Part shown: in pieces, positions 15,335 to 20,984 of the stretch
Numbering within the stretch: position 1 is the stretch's first letter
Layout: every line of letters starts with the position of its first letter
Source: Escherichia coli
GTDB lineage: Bacteria; Pseudomonadota; Gammaproteobacteria; Enterobacterales; Enterobacteriaceae
Strand: one strand, 5' to 3'
Length of the DNA stretch: 64,000 bases
NCBI RefSeq assembly: GCF_003334405.1
Contig: NZ_QOWM01000016.1
Program-made: the position numbers and the translations under genes
The notes under the pieces: model-generated
Told to the model about the DNA's origin: nothing
The model's database searches: none
The model's input: the letters and a program-made list of their open reading frames with translations, nothing else

Positions 15335-16090
15335 ATGAAAAAAGCGGGTCTTCTTTTTTTGGTGATGATAGTTATCGCCGTTGTGGCTGCCGGTATTGGT
15401 TACTGGAAATTAACCGGTGAAGAGTCGGATACATTACGTAAGATTGTCCTTGAGGAATGTTTGCCCAATCAGCAGCAAAATCAAAATCCTTCGCCATGTG
15501 CGGAAGTCAAACCCAATGCCGGATACGTGGTTTTAAAAGATCTTAATGGCCCACTGCAATATCTGTTGATGCCAACGTATCGTATTAACGGTACTGAAAG
15601 TCCTTTGTTGACCGATCCTTCAACGCCGAACTTCTTTTGGTTGGCTTGGCAGGCGCGTGATTTTATGAGCAAAAAATACGGCCAGCCGGTTCCCGATCGC
15701 GCGGTTTCTTTGGCGATCAACTCCCGCACCGGGCGTACGCAAAACCATTTTCATATTCATATCTCTTGTATTCGTCCTGATGTGCGCAAACAGCTGGATA
15801 ACAATCTGGCGAACATCAGCAGCCGCTGGTTGCCACTGCCAGGTGGTTTGCGCGGGCATGAATACCTGGCGCGTCGGGTAACGGAAAGCGAACTGGTACA
15901 ACGCAGCCCATTTATGATGCTGGCAGAAGAAGTACCTGAGGCGCGGGAACATATGGGACGCTACGGGCTGGCGATGGTACGGCAGAGTGATAACTCATTT
16001 GTATTGCTGGCGACACAACGAAATCTACTGACGCTTAACCGTGCTTCAGCCGAGGAAATTCAGGATCATCAGTGTGAGATTTTGCGTTAA
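15335..16090 (+). CDS. cdh: CDP-diacylglycerol pyrophosphatase
   Basis: Track ORF 15143..16090 trimmed to [33 protein letters not shown] (251 aa). Confidence 0.9.
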
Positions 16091-16112
16091 GGCGAAGAGT
16101 TAAGGAAAGTAA

Positions 16113-16135
16113 GTGCCGGATATGAAATCCGGCAC
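16113..16135. terminator. Hairpin between convergent cdh and tpiA
   Basis: Perfect inverted repeat GTGCCGGA-TATGAAA-TCCGGCAC in the 54-bp convergent spacer; no strong T-tract, so terminator function is tentative. Confidence 0.4.
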
Positions 16136-16144
16136 CTGTCAGAC

Positions 16145-16912
16145 TTAAGCCTGTTTAGCCGCTTCTGCAGCTTTAACGATTACTGCGAAGGCGTCAGCTT
16201 TCAGAGAAGCACCACCAACCAGCGCGCCGTCGATATCCGGCTGAGCAAACAGTTCTGCAGCGTTAGACGCGTTTACAGAGCCGCCGTACTGAATGATCAC
16301 TTGTTCAGCGATGTTAGCGTCAACTTTAGCGATGTGGTCACGGATGAATTTGTGAACAGCCTGTGCCTGAGCCGGAGTTGCAGATTTGCCAGTACCGATT
16401 GCCCATACAGGTTCGTAAGCGATAACCGCACCTTCGAATGCCGCAGCACCCTGAGTTTTCAGTACCGCGTCGATCTGACGTGCGCAAACTTCTTCAGTTT
16501 TGCCCGCTTCATTTTCAGCTTCGGTTTCACCGATGCACAGAACCGGAGTCAGGCCCTGCTCTTTCAGCACCGCGAATTTTTTCGCGATCAGTTCGTCAGA
16601 TTCTTTGTGGTAAGTACGACGTTCAGAGTGACCGATGATGATGTACTGTGCGCCGATGTCTTTCAGCATAGCAGCAGAGGTTTCACCGGTGAATGCGCCG
16701 GACAGGTTCAGGTCCACGTTTTGCGCACCCAGCATGATGTGGCTGCCTTCAGCTTCGCGCTTCGCCATATCGATATACATTTCCGGTGGTGCGATTGCAA
16801 CCGCACAGCCAGCAACACCTGCCAGCTCTTTACGCAGGTTAGAAACCAGCTCGTGAACCATGTGGCGGCTGCCGTTCAGTTTCCAGTTACCCATCACTAA
16901 AGGATGTCGCAT
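16145..16912 (-). CDS. tpiA: triosephosphate isomerase
   Basis: 255-aa [46 protein letters not shown]... Confidence 0.96.
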
Positions 16913-17019
16913 TTTAATTCTCCACGCTTATAAGCGAATAAAGGAAGATGGCCGCCCCGCAGGGCAGCAGGTCTGTGAAACAGTATAGAGATTCATCGGC
17001 ACAAAGGCTTTGCTTTTTG

Positions 17020-17619
17020 TCATTTATTCAAACCTTCAAGCGATTCAGATAGCGCCAGCTTAATCGGTTCAACAGCGAAGGTCAGCCCCTTTTCGCCGTT
17101 GTCCGCGACAACATAACGCAGTGCACCTTCTGTCTCGGTGTAATAACGTTTGTTTTTCCCCGCCGTTAGTAGCGACTGCAGTTTTTTCTGGCTTTGTGTT
17201 TTGGTCATTAATGGGGTGAGTGTGCGGATCACCGCTGCCATGTATTCCTGAGCTTTCGCTTTCGCGGCTTTTTGCTCTGGCCCCTGGATGGGTAGCCAGG
17301 TCATTTGAATGCTTTTGATTTTTAAGGTACCGCGCTCCAGCGCTGTAGAAGCATACAAGTTCTCATTAATTTTACTTGCAGCACGAGTGAGATTGGCTTT
17401 GTCGGGACTGCTGTCGATGGCACGAAATTCGTTCAGTGGCAGGCTGGGATTCTGGCTGTTAAAGTCTTCTCGAAACTGGCTGATGGAGAGATCGAAAGTA
17501 GGGGCTCCAGCCAGCAGATAAGGCGCGGTCGTTGCCGTATCTGGTGTTTGTGCATGCGCCGCTGTTGTAACGGTTAATGCAGAACATAAGAGAAAAAACA
17601 GCGTACACCCTGGCTTCAT
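17020..17619 (-). CDS. yiiQ: DUF1454-family secreted protein of unknown function
   Basis: 199-aa ORF with N-terminal signal peptide MKPGCTLFFLLCSALTVTTAAHAQ. Confidence 0.8.
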   Translation of the reverse strand: MKPGCTLFFLLCSALTVTTAAHAQTPDTATTAPYLLAGAPTFDLSISQFREDFNSQNPSLPLNEFRAIDSSPDKANLTRAASKINENLYASTALERGTLKIKSIQMTWLPIQGPEQKAAKAKAQEYMAAVIRTLTPLMTKTQSQKKLQSLLTAGKNKRYYTETEGALRYVVADNGEKGLTFAVEPIKLALSESLEGLNK

Positions 17620-17719
17620 TGACAGTACCTTTTGTTATGACTGGCTCCGATTAAAACGATATCTGTCGCCCTTGTCAAAAGGGTAGAATCCTGGAAAAGA
17701 CAACCATCAAGGAACTTAC

Positions 17720-18160
17720 ATGACCATACAGCAATGGTTATTCTCATTTAAAGGGCGTATTGGACGCCGTGATTTCTGGATTTGGATAGGCCTGTGGTTC
17801 GCAGGCATGCTGGTGCTTTTCTCACTGGCGGGTAAGAATCTACTCGATATTCAGACCGCGGCGTTTTGCCTTGTGTGCTTGCTCTGGCCAACAGCGGCAG
17901 TAACTGTTAAGCGCTTGCATGATCGCGGGCGTTCCGGCGCATGGGCATTTCTGATGATTGTGGCGTGGATGCTGCTGGCGGGTAACTGGGCGATTTTACC
18001 GGGTGTCTGGCAATGGGCGGTGGGGCGTTTTGTCCCGACGTTGATTCTGGTGATGATGCTTATCGATCTTGGTGCGTTTGTTGGCACACAAGGCGAAAAT
18101 AAATATGGTAAAGATACTCAGGATGTGAAGTATAAAGCCGACAATAAATCAAGTAATTAA
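17720..18160 (+). CDS. yiiR: DUF805-family inner membrane protein
   Basis: 146-aa hydrophobic ORF, MTIQQWLFSFKGRIGRRDFWIWIGLWFAGMLVLF... Confidence 0.8.
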   Translation: MTIQQWLFSFKGRIGRRDFWIWIGLWFAGMLVLFSLAGKNLLDIQTAAFCLVCLLWPTAAVTVKRLHDRGRSGAWAFLMIVAWMLLAGNWAILPGVWQWAVGRFVPTLILVMMLIDLGAFVGTQGENKYGKDTQDVKYKADNKSSN

Positions 18161-18371
18161 CCTTTAATATATCTCTTACTGCTATTTTTTTCCGGGATTG
18201 TTATTTCCACGATGCAAATGACAATACCCGGAAAATCCTTCTGAACTCTTCACCTTAAGCAATATCAAAAAAAATGGTAATCCATAAGATCATTACTTGT
18301 TTGTTCTTCCCTTAACGGCGCATTATTCTTAAGTCGTAATCGACAGAGAGGCGAATATACAGAGGTGCCCT

Positions 18372-18671
18372 ATGAAAGATGTCGTAGATAAATGCAGTAC
18401 TAAAGGATGTGCGATTGATATCGGTACGGTGATTGATAACGACAACTGTACCAGTAAGTTTTCGCGCTTTTTTGCCACCCGCGAAGAAGCAGAGTCTTTT
18501 ATGACCAAACTGAAAGAGCTTGCCGCCGCTACATCCTCTGCAGATGAAGGGGCCAGCGTGGCCTATAAGATTAAGGATCTGGAGGGGCAAGTTGAGCTTG
18601 ATGCGGCCTTCACTTTCTCATGCCAGGCCGAGATGATTATTTTTGAGTTATCACTGCGTTCGTTAGCTTGA
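18372..18671 (+). CDS. yiiS: small conserved protein of unknown function (UPF0381/DUF406)
   Basis: 99-aa [37 protein letters not shown]... Confidence 0.8.
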
Positions 18672-18697
18672 TGGAGTTGCTTTAGAAGGAGTTAAAC

Positions 18698-19126
18698 ATG
18701 GCTTATAAACACATTGGCGTGGCAATTTCCGGGAATGAAGAAGATGCCTTACTGGTGAATAAAGCCCTGGAGCTCGCCAGACATAATGACGCTCACCTGA
18801 CGTTAATTCATATTGATGATGGCTTAAGCGAGTTGTATCCGGGTATCTACTTCCCTGCAACAGAAGATATTCTTCAATTGTTGAAGAATAAGTCGGATAA
18901 CAAGCTGTATAAACTGACGAAAAATATTCAATGGCCGAAGACAAAACTGCGTATTGAACGCGGAGAAATGCCGGAAACACTGCTGGAAATTATGCAAAAA
19001 GAGCAGTGCGACCTCCTTGTCTGTGGTCATCATCACTCATTTATCAACCGTTTGATGCCGGCATATCGCGGGATGATCAATAAGATGAGTGCGGATTTGC
19101 TCATCGTGCCGTTTATCGATAAGTAA
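18698..19126 (+). CDS. uspD: universal stress protein D
   Basis: 142-aa [43 protein letters not shown]... Confidence 0.85.
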
Positions 19127-19130
19127 CCGC

Positions 19131-19877
19131 TTACCAGTAATGCTCCGCTGTCATATGGCCCGGTCGGCGACGTAAATGTTTCGTCATCTGCCGGGTCTCT
19201 TTCAGCAACTGTTGTGTATCGCGCACCATCTGTGGATTGCCGCACAGCATCACATGGCTGGTTTCTTTATTCATCGGCAGGCCAATCGTGCTTTCCAGTT
19301 CCCCACTTTCAATTAATGCCGGTATCCGTCCGGTGAGCGACCCCGCTGCCGTTTCCCGACTGACCACCGTCTGAATGCGCAGTTTTCCTTCGTAGCGTTT
19401 TTCCAGTTCCTGCATCAGTGGCAAATAGCTTAAGTCGGCGGCATAACGTGCGGCGTGCACCAGGACCAGATTTTTGAAGCGATCTAAATCTTTACCTAGT
19501 TGCAGAATCGATAAATAAGGGCCAATCGCTGTACCGGTTGCCAGCATCCATAGCGTTTCGCAGTGCGGCACTTCATCGAGCACAAAGAATCCTGCCGCTT
19601 CGCTAACCACCTGCACTTCATCGCCTGGTTTCAGTGCCGCCAGTCGTGGGCTTAATTTGCCATCGGGGACGGTGACCAGGTAAAACTCCAGATCGGGATT
19701 ATCGGGCGAGTTTACATAGGAGTAGGCGCGCTGGACGCGTTCGCCGTCGATTTCAAGGCCAAGCTTGGTAAATTGCCCGGCGGTAAACGGAAGCACGGGG
19801 GCGTGAACGGTGAGACTAAACAGGGCGTCGGTCCAGTTCTGCACTTTAGTGACTTTGCCTGTTACCCAATCAGCCAT
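19131..19877 (-). CDS. fpr: flavodoxin/ferredoxin-NADP+ reductase
   Basis: 248-aa ORF, MADWVTGKVTKVQNWTDALFSLTVHAPVLPFTAGQFTKLGLE... Confidence 0.93.
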   Translation of the reverse strand: MADWVTGKVTKVQNWTDALFSLTVHAPVLPFTAGQFTKLGLEIDGERVQRAYSYVNSPDNPDLEFYLVTVPDGKLSPRLAALKPGDEVQVVSEAAGFFVLDEVPHCETLWMLATGTAIGPYLSILQLGKDLDRFKNLVLVHAARYAADLSYLPLMQELEKRYEGKLRIQTVVSRETAAGSLTGRIPALIESGELESTIGLPMNKETSHVMLCGNPQMVRDTQQLLKETRQMTKHLRRRPGHMTAEHYW

Positions 19878-19921
19878 GTTTTTCTCCTGTTTTGATTGAC
19901 TTGCCTTATCTTCGTTCTCCG

Positions 19922-19950
19922 AACAAAAAAATTCCAGTCCCGAAGGACTG
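19922..19950 (-). terminator. Intrinsic terminator at the end of glpFKX
   Basis: Minus-strand hairpin CCAGTCC-TTCG-GGACTGG followed by a run of U (plus-strand A-tract 19924..19930), 24 bp past the glpX stop. Confidence 0.7.
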
Positions 19951-19973
19951 GAAGGCTCAATCGATCAAATCAA

Positions 19974-20984
19974 TCAGAGGATGTGCACCTGCATTTCCGG
20001 GTCTTTGCGATCCAGATAGTGGATGGACTGAATGCGGCGAATGGTGCGTGACTTGCCGCGGATCAGCAGCGTTTCGGTAGTCGCGATATTGCCTTTGCGG
20101 CTAATGCCTTCCAGCAGATCGCCTTTGGTAATACCGGTGGCAGAGAAGATGACGTTATCGCTGCGCGCCATATCGCCCAGGCGCAATACTTTACCGGCTT
20201 CGATGCCCATCGCTTTGCAGCGTGCCAGCTCCTGCTCGCCAATGCGACGATTCTCTTCGTTGTCGCCTTTGACGTCATGACGCGCCAGCAGACGACCGTT
20301 CATGTCGCCATCTAATGCGCGGATCACCGCCGCAGAAACTACGCCTTCCGGCGCGCCACCAATACCGTACAGCACGTCAACTTCGCTGTCTGGCATACAG
20401 GTGAGAATTGAGGCCGCAACGTCGCCGTCCGGAATAGCAAATACGCGTACGCCGAGTTGCTGCATTTCAGCGATAACGGCATCGTGGCGTGGTTTAGCCA
20501 GAATCGTTACCGTCAGTTCGCTCAACGGTTTGCCGAGCGCCGCCGCTACATTGCGCAGGTTATCCGCCAGCGGCAGGTTCAGATCAATGGTGCCTTTGGC
20601 TCCCGGCCCGACAATCAGCTTCTCCATATACATATCCGGCGCATTGAGGAAGCAGCCTTTATCGCCTACTGCCAGCACCGCCAGCGCGTTAGCCTGGCCC
20701 ATCGCCGTCATGCGCGTGCCTTCAATCGGATCAACAGCAATATCTACCGCGTCGCCGCGACCAGTACCGACTTTTTCACCAATGTAGAGCATCGGTGCTT
20801 CGTCGATTTCACCTTCACCAATGACGATGGTGCCGTCAATGTTGACCTGGTTGAGCATAATACGCATGGCGTTTACCGCCGCGCCGTCCGCGGTGTTTTT
20901 ATCGCCGCGTCCTAACCATTTGTAGCCAGCCAGCGCCGCTGATTCGGTGACGCGGGAAAATTCGATGGCAAGTTCTCGTCTCAT
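19974..20984 (-). CDS. glpX: class II fructose-1,6-bisphosphatase
   Basis: Track ORF 19974..21113 trimmed to MRRELAIEFSRVTESAALAGYKWLGRGDKNTADGAAV (336 aa). Confidence 0.93.
   Translation of the reverse strand: MRRELAIEFSRVTESAALAGYKWLGRGDKNTADGAAVNAMRIMLNQVNIDGTIVIGEGEIDEAPMLYIGEKVGTGRGDAVDIAVDPIEGTRMTAMGQANALAVLAVGDKGCFLNAPDMYMEKLIVGPGAKGTIDLNLPLADNLRNVAAALGKPLSELTVTILAKPRHDAVIAEMQQLGVRVFAIPDGDVAASILTCMPDSEVDVLYGIGGAPEGVVSAAVIRALDGDMNGRLLARHDVKGDNEENRRIGEQELARCKAMGIEAGKVLRLGDMARSDNVIFSATGITKGDLLEGISRKGNIATTETLLIRGKSRTIRRIQSIHYLDRKDPEMQVHIL

Follow-up and report, generated by a model that had tools for sequence, protein, structure and literature searches.

Between tpiA and fpr, the stretch of DNA analyzed here (the window, 64 kb in length) carries four open reading frames whose identical counterparts in RefSeq are named yiiQ, yiiR, yiiS, and uspD, with a base-for-base match. 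yiiQ lies on the minus strand (17020–17619, 199 aa), and yiiR (17720–18160, 146 aa), yiiS (18372–18671, 99 aa), and uspD (18698–19126, 142 aa) lie on the plus strand. Pfam assigns YiiQ to DUF1454 (PF07305, E = 5.5e-92, model positions 2–189 of 189), YiiR to DUF805 (PF05656, E = 9.5e-19, model positions 1–111 of 111), YiiS to DUF406 (E = 1.3e-28), and UspD to Usp (E = 1.3e-20), and the NCBIfam equivalog models of YiiS and UspD both score above their curated cut-offs. The original prediction thus had the limits, families, and names of the four genes exactly, and its placement of them between tpiA and fpr is borne out by the RefSeq annotation; it had mentioned neither the opposite strand of yiiQ nor the 26-bp spacing of yiiS and uspD. 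The region matches E. coli chromosomes at 100% identity and is found at a coverage of at least 80% in every complete E. coli genome (5426/5426). It had also been said that none of these genes has an assigned biochemical function, and full-text literature searches indeed yield none for any of the four, but the accompanying label of functional dark matter goes too far for two of them, given the solved structure of YiiS (2K3I) and the knockout phenotypes of UspD. A defense-system or phage origin is ruled out by zero PADLOC matches for all four proteins and by PHROGs matches that are only weak or generic. An Rfam scan of positions 16000–20500 (E ≤ 1) left the intergenic regions without a match, its sole match being a chance miRNA inside tpiA.

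The N-terminus of YiiQ, MKPGCTLFFLLCSALTVTTAAHA followed by Q, fits the description of the protein as secreted. By its sequence features, the predicted signal peptide comprises residues 1–23, in which K2 is followed by a hydrophobic core and, immediately before Q, by AHA as the AxA cleavage motif, and every YiiQ homolog in our alignment has a hydrophobic N-terminal stretch. DUF1454 is a small family, of which 1.84 billion clustered proteins include just 111 representatives, and the AFDB relatives of YiiQ, among the matches listed, are all in Enterobacterales families; judged by these sequences, the family is confined to that order. Structure prediction and a structural-homology search had been proposed as checks and, when run, gave a confident model (AlphaFold2, alpha/beta, pLDDT 88.1) and no solved relative. 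A PDB sequence search with YiiQ returned nothing under E = 0.3, and DUF1454 members made up all of the best 50 matches listed by Foldseek against AFDB50. YiiQ is confidently modeled, yet as modeled it is without resemblance to any solved structure. With such a fold, no solved relative, and a distribution within one bacterial order, it is a possible, if modest, target for structural or envelope biology.

Synteny was followed by tblastn in 80 Enterobacteriaceae loci from more than 20 genera, which were gathered with an alignment of eight sequences. yiiQ is directly upstream of tpiA in 80/80 of these loci. Distant DUF1454 relatives, at 33–38% identity, have TIM immediately downstream, fpr or dcrB upstream, and no DUF805 neighbor; on the two contigs of such relatives that show flanks, tpiA, on the same strand as the yiiQ homolog, is the one neighbor kept by both. 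Because the tpiA −10 element and leader start right after the yiiQ stop codon, the linkage of the two genes is most simply explained as regulatory entanglement. A conserved hairpin in the tpiA leader may act as the terminator of yiiQ, as an attenuator of tpiA, or as both.

On its other side, yiiQ has a near-consensus sigma-70 promoter of its own, read from the sequence at 17650–17678 on the minus strand. The −35 hexamer TTGACA (17678–17673) is separated by a 17-nt spacer from the −10 hexamer TTTAAT (17655–17650); both hexamers are invariant across 15 genera, and the −35 overlaps a plus-strand TTGTCA facing yiiR. A sigma-70 consensus scan gave 3 sites where 3.5 would be expected, none of them plausibly placed; it accepted only −10 elements with A as the second base and hence passed over TTTAAT. 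YiiR has four hydrophobic segments by Kyte–Doolittle hydropathy, a multi-pass architecture that agrees with its earlier description as a membrane protein, and a PDB sequence search with it found nothing under E = 0.3. Two basic motifs are conserved among 79 distinct orthologs, an N-terminal FSFKGRIGRRDFW and a KRLHDRGRSG in the loop that joins segments 2 and 3, and by the positive-inside rule both would face the cytoplasm. The gene is located between yiiQ and fpr throughout the Enterobacteriaceae.

It could be supposed that yiiQ and yiiR are a functional pair, that is, a periplasmic protein and its inner-membrane partner sharing a divergent control region. The two genes are adjacent and divergent in 80/80 Enterobacteriaceae loci, and their putative −35 hexamers overlap inside one invariant CTTGTCAAAA block. 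We consider such a pairing unlikely, since the distant DUF1454 relatives have fpr or dcrB where a DUF805 gene would be expected, prediction puts the conserved motifs of YiiR on the cytoplasmic and not the periplasmic side, and the breadth of the DUF805 family contrasts with the limitation of DUF1454 to Enterobacterales.

YiiS scores 197.4 bits, against a cut-off of 130, with its NCBIfam equivalog model (DUF406; PF04175, TIGR00743, PRK09981) and matches PDB 2K3I, the NMR structure of Shigella YiiS, over all 99 residues (E = 3.4e-59, 98/99 identical). The protein consists of a Cys-bearing N-terminal arm (C8, C13, and C26) and a beta-alpha-beta-beta-alpha domain carrying C84 and E87. Residues V5, D6, K7, C8, K11, G12, C13, D16, G18, N23, C26, and F82 to E87 are invariant in our alignment. 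Between yiiS and its paralog (described below), codons 1–28 have 12 synonymous and 5 non-synonymous differences, and the rest have 20 and 33. Structure prediction, which had also been proposed for YiiS, agrees with the existing NMR fold: the AlphaFold2 model has the secondary structure of the NMR topology, a three-stranded sheet and two helices. The arm is disordered in both the NMR structure and the model (residues 1–23, pLDDT <50), and a pre-formed site made by its packing is therefore unsupported.

The authors of the NMR work proposed that YiiS is a small enzyme or ligand-binder with a fold related to pterin-4a-carbinolamine dehydratase (DCoH), which would act independently of UspD. YiiS superposes on DCoH at 2.8 Å over 70 residues, and the conserved surface around an invariant Glu maps to the PCD ligand site (PMC2860719); this Glu (E87 here) and C84 are invariant in our alignment, and DUF406 genes have no Usp partner in Klebsiella and Kluyvera. 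However, the hypothesis leaves out the N-terminal arm, although no part of YiiS is better conserved, the PCD substrate-binding residues are unconserved at an identity of 11–12%, and the fold is a very common one (PMC2860719), so that this explanation seems to us quite improbable. With the pterin-binding and catalytic residues reported as unconserved (PMC2860719), YiiS is not filed here as a member of the DCoH family.

UspD scores 329.2 bits against a cut-off of 203 with its own equivalog model (NCBIfam PRK09982), with weaker matches to the UspA and UspC models, and aligns end to end with PDB 1JMV, H. influenzae UspA (E = 7e-22). A regular-expression search of UspD for the ATP motif G-2x-G-9x-G-(S/T) gave no match, and the protein is therefore filed as class I (UspA-type). 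Reviews know UspD by phenotypes alone, namely oxidative stress and intracellular iron control, and uspD mutants are sensitive to paraquat and streptonigrin. UspD-type sequences are almost confined to Escherichia, which holds nearly all of the close ones among 63 matches at E ≤ 1e-10. Since neither YiiS nor UspD has a signal peptide or membrane segment, both are cytoplasmic and not envelope proteins. The view of the four as envelope or stress genes accordingly fails for these two products as far as the envelope is concerned, although envelope stress does induce both genes.

The two genes are on the same strand, and their 26-bp gap contains the AAGGAG ribosome-binding site of uspD (18686–18691, plus strand) and no terminator-like site. 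On the basis of the short gap, the ribosome-binding site, the lack of such a site, and published co-induction, yiiS-uspD is one bicistronic transcription unit, and uspD is consequently not a separately promoted intergenic gene. The claim that each of the four genes has its own intergenic promoter can be kept for yiiQ, yiiR, and yiiS insofar as each has an upstream intergenic region, but not for uspD, which shares a unit with yiiS; an additional uspD promoter may lie inside yiiS. YdeO, a regulator of acid resistance, binds here and induces yiiS and uspD equally (log10 ratios of 0.72 and 0.70), with yiiR unaffected (PMC4222967). Both genes are also members of the sigma-E regulon and are induced by sigma-E overexpression (PMC2731931); yiiS expression is up in an rseA mutant and is lowered by a degS deletion in a prc mutant (PMC6941253).

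We predict a sigma-E-type promoter at 18243–18269 on the plus strand, GAACTC-N16-TCAAA, which precedes the yiiS ATG by 103 bp. The consensus, by Rhodius et al. 2006, is said to be GGAACTT-N16-TCAAA. Our motif is the sole match to its pattern in the 64-kb window, and it is weak by itself because 0.45 matches are expected by chance. We infer the position of this promoter, and the yiiS-uspD transcription start sites, from sequence together with the literature. The 40-nt stretch containing the motif (18236–18275) is at least 99% identical in 4845/5426 E. coli genomes. Since the −35 GAACT is missing in E. albertii and in one divergent E. coli, sigma-E control may be recent or limited to certain strains. 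For YdeO, a search with the canonical box (an ATTTCA inverted repeat with a 3–22 nt spacer and at most 2 mismatches) gave no match in the inverted orientation; the only box-like pair of the intergenic region, TGAACT-N14-ATATCA (18242–18267), is everted and overlaps the sigma-E promoter.

A near-perfect 48-nt palindrome (18188–18235) lies between yiiR and the yiiS promoter, close to both. As RNA, it folds into a hairpin at −22.8 kcal/mol (z = −5.0), it has no U-tract on either strand, and one compensatory change, ATTGT/ACAAT to ATCGT/ACGAT, is found in E. albertii and the divergent E. coli. Its center, ATTTCC..GCAAAT, was considered as a YdeO site and rejected, the spacing being outside the published 9–21 nt. 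Likewise, a conserved RNA structure in the yiiS leader was rejected on a consensus energy of only −2.2 kcal/mol and a single-sequence z of +0.23. At the other end of the unit, uspD and the convergent fpr end with their stop codons 4 bp apart, and yiiS-uspD transcripts would run into fpr; uspD-fpr is a listed convergent excludon (PMC12288877).

The order tpiA-yiiQ-yiiR-fpr-glpX is kept in the 80 Enterobacteriaceae loci wherever the contig reaches, and yiiS-uspD is found between yiiR and fpr in Escherichia only. The yiiR and fpr stop codons are 0–10 bp apart in most genera, 45–130 bp apart, with REP-like sequence, in Citrobacter and Salmonella, and 959–976 bp apart in Escherichia. From tblastn over the 80 loci, the junction sequences, and composition, yiiS-uspD can be assigned to an AT-rich segment of 970 bp, 18161–19130. 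Its GC content is 0.429, versus 0.494 for yiiR, 0.535 for fpr, 0.494–0.568 for the neighboring genes, and 0.527 for the whole window; neither the list of open reading frames nor the RefSeq annotation has an integrase or transposase within it, and its flanks are free of mobility genes. Distribution and composition suggest that yiiS-uspD was acquired by Escherichia.

Taking architecture, regulation, and layering together, we propose, with a probability of about 70%, that the interval is a mosaic in which three transcription units, independent of one another, differ in evolutionary age. The first would be yiiQ, with its own invariant sigma-70 promoter, kept with tpiA. The second would be yiiR, a four-segment inner-membrane protein gene between yiiQ and fpr. 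The third would be yiiS-uspD, an AT-rich insertion in an ancestor of Escherichia, placed exactly between the ends of yiiR and fpr, which otherwise abut.

Against this layering, yiiS-uspD might have been ancestral at the site and lost from all other Enterobacteriaceae. The DUF406 genes of Klebsiella and Kluyvera do have a homologous upstream leader, which makes the gene old in the family. The loss scenario is nevertheless very doubtful: it needs many independent and precise losses, each leaving the yiiR and fpr stops 0–10 bp apart, the GC content of the insert is below that of its flanks, the DUF406 genes of other genera are at unrelated loci, and UspD-type proteins are almost confined to Escherichia. 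The earlier view of four independently promoted envelope or stress genes forming a meaningful cluster, for which it can be said that all are small and poorly characterized, that there is an intergenic region upstream of yiiQ, of yiiR, and of yiiS, that YiiQ is exported and YiiR membrane-bound, and that yiiS-uspD responds to envelope stress, is hardly tenable when 26 bp leaves uspD no room for an intergenic promoter, YdeO induces yiiS and uspD and not yiiR, YiiS and UspD have no export signal, the four occur jointly only in Escherichia, and distant YiiQ relatives lack a yiiR neighbor.

Within this mosaic of three units, yiiS-uspD has a counterpart elsewhere. A paralogous pair, with a DUF406 protein 62% identical to YiiS and a Usp 57% identical to UspD encoded 29 bp apart, directly follows asrABC on a rare, mobile island; the genes to either side of the pair vary between contigs, being island-type or IS66. 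Because this similarly spaced pair resides on a mobile island, the DUF406 and UspD-type genes can be regarded as a portable two-gene module. DUF406 genes are also found solo, as in Klebsiella and Kluyvera, and on one contig beside a small AraC/MarA-like gene. A rule that DUF406 precedes every UspD-type gene is ruled out by one UspD-like gene (65% identical) with no DUF406 upstream.

We suggest, with low confidence, that YiiS works with UspD in cytoplasmic defense against oxidative and iron stress, in which the disordered Cys arm and C84/E87 would serve as a metal, redox, or partner-binding element. A more specific version, to which we give rather little credence, is that the mobile module uses the arm (C8, C13, and C26, with C84 and E87) to bind a metal, be it iron or another, or a redox signal and, via UspD, limits free iron or protects Fe-S enzymes. 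If true, it would account for the uspD mutant phenotype (iron and superoxide), as well as for the placement of the module by fpr in Escherichia and by the Fe-S/siroheme sulfite reductase genes asrABC on the island. Against the metal or redox idea, the NMR work on YiiS reported no metal, the Vibrio homologs retain only C8 and C13, and UspA, too, has the CGHH stretch of UspD.

Gene identities, families, the solved structure of YiiS, and the control of yiiS-uspD by sigma-E and YdeO could already be found in published work or routine annotation. What is new is a clearer picture of the locus and a few small evolutionary details, with little significance beyond housekeeping. In practice, the four genes are unsuited to deletion or co-expression work as a single unit; the testable unit is yiiS-uspD. 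Proteins of the UspA class have gone for decades without a biochemical handle, and a conserved Cys-bearing partner offers a concrete approach to the iron and oxidative phenotype of UspD.

How do these proteins compare with better-known systems? The structural neighbors of YiiQ are DUF2066 and other uncharacterized exported alpha/beta proteins. YiiR is in one Pfam family with YhaH and YhaI, which we take to be DUF805 paralogs of E. coli, and resembles them in its small, multi-pass build; we know of no function for either, so that the comparison gives no mechanism. yiiS-uspD shares promoter pattern and induction with the sigma-E regulon, but the core of that regulon serves envelope biogenesis, whereas the products here are cytoplasmic. 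Among DUF406 structures, the Vibrio members 2KHD (VC_A0919) and 2JZ5 (VPA0419) have C8 and C13 while lacking C26 and C84, whereas the enterobacterial subgroup has four invariant Cys. UspD is without the ATP motif, like the class I members UspA and UspC of E. coli and 1JMV. It differs from other UspA-type proteins in a third His (CGHHH), in being usually preceded by a DUF406 gene, and in its iron-control phenotype.

The window is Escherichia coli chromosome: its interval 16000-20500 is 100% identical to several complete genomes, and each of the 5426 complete E. coli genomes searched has it at a coverage of at least 80%. The limits of the four genes that the original prediction recognised there match the open reading frames exactly, and RefSeq and Pfam agree on what they are: yiiQ (17020-17619, minus strand, 199 aa; DUF1454, E=5.5e-92), yiiR (17720-18160, plus, 146 aa; DUF805, E=9.5e-19), yiiS (18372-18671, plus, 99 aa; DUF406, E=1.3e-28) and uspD (18698-19126, plus, 142 aa; Usp, E=1.3e-20). 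RefSeq places tpiA on one side of the four and fpr on the other, and YiiS and UspD both clear the cut-offs of NCBIfam equivalog models by wide margins. The genes and their annotation are already known, as had been said, and caution about function was justified, since a literature search found no biochemical function for YiiQ, YiiR, YiiS or UspD. The prediction had left out that yiiQ lies on the opposite strand and that the yiiS-uspD gap is only 26 bp. Its picture of four independently promoted genes is not supported, as yiiS and uspD are one operon with a 26-bp gap and shared induction; nor is that of a meaningful cluster, given that yiiS and uspD occur at this site only in Escherichia loci. 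What can be added is small: an Escherichia-specific yiiS-uspD insertion, a DUF406-Usp pair recurring beside asrABC, an invariant Cys arm in YiiS and a yiiQ-tpiA linkage.

An AAGGAG ribosome-binding site stands six bases before the uspD ATG in the gap between yiiS and uspD, and a sequence scan of that gap found no terminator-like site. The operon reading is backed by published YdeO and sigma-E data. 'yiiS-yiiT/uspD' is a direct YdeO target by ChIP-chip, EMSA, transcriptome, RT-qPCR and lacZ fusions, and YdeO induces yiiS and uspD equally, with log10 ratios of 0.72 and 0.70, leaving yiiR unaffected (PMC4222967). Several independent studies list both genes in the sigma-E regulon (PMC2731931); yiiS serves as a sigma-E reporter, being expressed more highly in an rseA mutant than in the wild type and less upon degS deletion in a prc mutant (PMC6941253). 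A putative sigma-E promoter, GAACTC-N16-TCAAA, lies at 18243-18269 on the plus strand, 103 bp upstream of the yiiS ATG. It is the single match to this pattern in the 64-kb window and, since 0.45 would be expected by chance, the motif alone is weak evidence. The 40 nt containing it (18236-18275) have at least 99% identity in 4845 of 5426 E. coli genomes; the GAACT of the -35 is missing in E. albertii and one divergent E. coli, both of which keep the -10 and the leader. The intergenic region has a single YdeO-box-like hexamer pair, TGAACT-N14-ATATCA, and it overlaps this sigma-E-type promoter. At the other end of the operon, 4 bp separate the convergent stop codons of uspD and fpr (19126-19131), with no terminator-like site found between them by sequence scan, and a 2025 RNA-seq survey describes uspD-fpr as a convergent excludon (PMC12288877).

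With an alignment of YiiQ relatives, 80 loci were retrieved from Enterobacteriaceae, one genome per species. By tblastn, the order tpiA, yiiQ, yiiR, fpr, glpX is found in every locus with a contig long enough, and yiiS and uspD are found at the locus only in Escherichia. Between the stop codons of yiiR and fpr lie 0-10 bp in Raoultella, Enterobacter, Klebsiella, Kosakonia, Cedecea, Kluyvera, Buttiauxella, Pluralibacter and Yokenella; the two are separated by 45-130 bp of REP-like sequence (GCCGGATAAGGCG...) in Citrobacter (loci L005 and L010) and Salmonella (L013 and L015), and by 959-976 bp in Escherichia. The Escherichia-specific segment, 18161-19130, has a GC content of 0.429, whereas yiiR has 0.494, fpr 0.535 and the window as a whole 0.527. 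The simplest reading is that yiiS-uspD was gained in an ancestor of Escherichia; as the insert is not marked by any mobility gene, this gain is argued from distribution and composition only. With yiiS-uspD in Escherichia, REP-like sequence in Salmonella and Citrobacter, and abutting stop codons in most genera, the convergent yiiR-fpr junction therefore accepts insertions repeatedly.

Between yiiR and the yiiS promoter lies a near-perfect palindrome of 48 nt (18188-18235), with an RNA fold of -22.8 kcal/mol (z=-5.0) and one compensatory change, shared by E. albertii and a divergent E. coli. It is preceded by a T-run and followed by an A-run, and is therefore not a canonical terminator on either strand. 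In some otherwise identical E. coli strains, IS1 occupies the AT-rich yiiR-yiiS spacer (E. coli HCP8S3_I1, L096 2456-3153), at or beside the palindrome and upstream of the sigma-E promoter.

Few UspD-type proteins occur outside Escherichia: a search gave 63 matches at E<=1e-10, and the close ones are nearly all from that genus. The next group (55-57% identity) is encoded in a small number of E. coli and Salmonella assemblies, and in three independent contigs a 99-aa DUF406 gene lies 29 bp upstream of the UspD-like gene. This pair, whose DUF406 protein is 62% identical to YiiS, is directly 3' of asrABC (anaerobic sulfite reductase) on a rare mobile island of E. coli and Salmonella (L088 2232-5423; L095 4105-7754; L098 665-4423), an arrangement present in 3-4 of 5426 complete E. 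coli genomes. The pair is bordered by island-type genes (YagK/YfjJ, Hha, AlpA) in one contig and by IS66 in others; toxin-antitoxin genes or IS66 are near some copies. In L095, the DUF406 reading frame between asrC and the Usp gene has no listed feature.

The pairing of DUF406 with Usp is not obligatory. The gene stands solo in Klebsiella, between curA and yncD/yncE, and in Kluyvera, after an SBP_bac_5 gene, and no DUF406 gene precedes the UspD-like gene (65% identical) in one Salmonella contig. In a further contig, a short one (L097 480-1154), a 119-aa AraC/MarA/SoxS-like HTH gene lies 19 bp downstream of a DUF406 gene whose product is 55% identical to YiiS, another stress-linked pairing. A conserved upstream block of about 100 bp, CAAAAAAATGGTAATCCATAA...ATTA.TGGTTTG, is common to yiiS of E. 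coli and the solo DUF406 genes in Klebsiella and Kluyvera, which sit at unrelated loci (window 18264-18371; L084 4908-5000; L086 3909-4000). By this shared block, the DUF406 gene travels with its leader. No conserved RNA structure was found in that leader, so the block is probably a shared promoter or operator.

On the other side of the locus, a 100-bp spacer separates the divergent genes yiiQ and yiiR. The yiiQ promoter is a near-consensus sigma-70 sequence on the minus strand (-35 TTGACA, 17678-17673; 17-nt spacer; -10 TTTAAT, 17655-17650), and both hexamers are invariant across 15 genera. The promoter scanner overlooked it because its model demands A at position 2 of the -10. The candidate promoter of yiiR is less clear-cut, with TAGAAT or TAAACT as the -10 and a TTGTCA overlapping the yiiQ -35. 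The YiiQ family has few members (111 representatives in a set of 1.84 billion clustered proteins), and AFDB models put it in all the Enterobacterales families listed, from Erwinia and Yersinia to Proteus and Budvicia. In two distant relatives (33-38% identity) on contigs with flanks, the next gene downstream, on the same strand, encodes triose-phosphate isomerase; neither has a DUF805 neighbour, the upstream gene being fpr in one and dcrB in the other. Therefore, yiiQ-tpiA is an old linkage and yiiR a later neighbour. In a relative of 33% identity (L093 227-2424), the fpr-like gene and the start of the DUF1454 gene share 17 nt, and the isomerase gene follows 62 nt after the latter; with all three on one strand, the arrangement resembles an operon.

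The yiiQ-tpiA linkage is explained in a mundane way by the spacer, which holds within about 110 bp an invariant TATACT -10 of tpiA (16987-16982, minus strand), an invariant upstream block overlapping the yiiQ stop codon, and a conserved hairpin. In agreement, a paper on plasmid stabilisation puts the predicted tpiA promoter in a fragment whose start falls within yiiQ, 150 bp ahead of the tpiA ATG (PMC4006690). The hairpin (16951-16968, minus strand), 7 bp, GC-rich and followed by a U-rich stretch, stands a short way past the yiiQ stop, between this -10 and the start codon of tpiA. It is retained across 15 genera, with standard pairs in 104 of 105 pair cells and compensatory changes at three positions, and could be a yiiQ terminator, a tpiA leader attenuator, or both.

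As to the proteins, UspD and H. influenzae UspA (1JMV, E=7e-22) align over their full lengths, and a motif test found no ATP motif in UspD, which is therefore a class I USP. Reviews connect uspD with superoxide defence and control of intracellular iron, and report no biochemical activity. YiiR has four hydrophobic segments and two conserved basic motifs, an N-terminal FSFKGRIGRRDFW and a KRLHDRGRSG loop, which by the positive-inside rule should both face the cytoplasm.

YiiS matches PDB 2K3I over all 99 residues, 98 of them identical. The NMR structure has two helices, a three-stranded sheet and a disordered stretch of 28 N-terminal residues, and its authors described a common fold with a tentative DCoH-like ligand site around an invariant Glu (PMC2860719). 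AlphaFold2 gives residues 1-23 a pLDDT below 50. In an alignment of 17 enterobacterial members, this "disordered" arm is the most conserved part of the protein, with V5, D6, K7, C8, K11, G12, C13, D16, G18, N23 and C26 invariant, as is F82-S-C84-Q-A-E87. Between yiiS and its asr-linked paralogue, codons 1-28 have 12 synonymous and 5 non-synonymous differences, versus 20 and 33 in the rest; the few non-synonymous changes in the arm show that it is the protein that is under constraint. An arm that is conserved and disordered and carries Cys residues suggests that YiiS may have a role in metal, redox or partner binding. Compared with YiiS, Vibrio VC_A0919, which is without C26 or C84, keeps C8 and C13.
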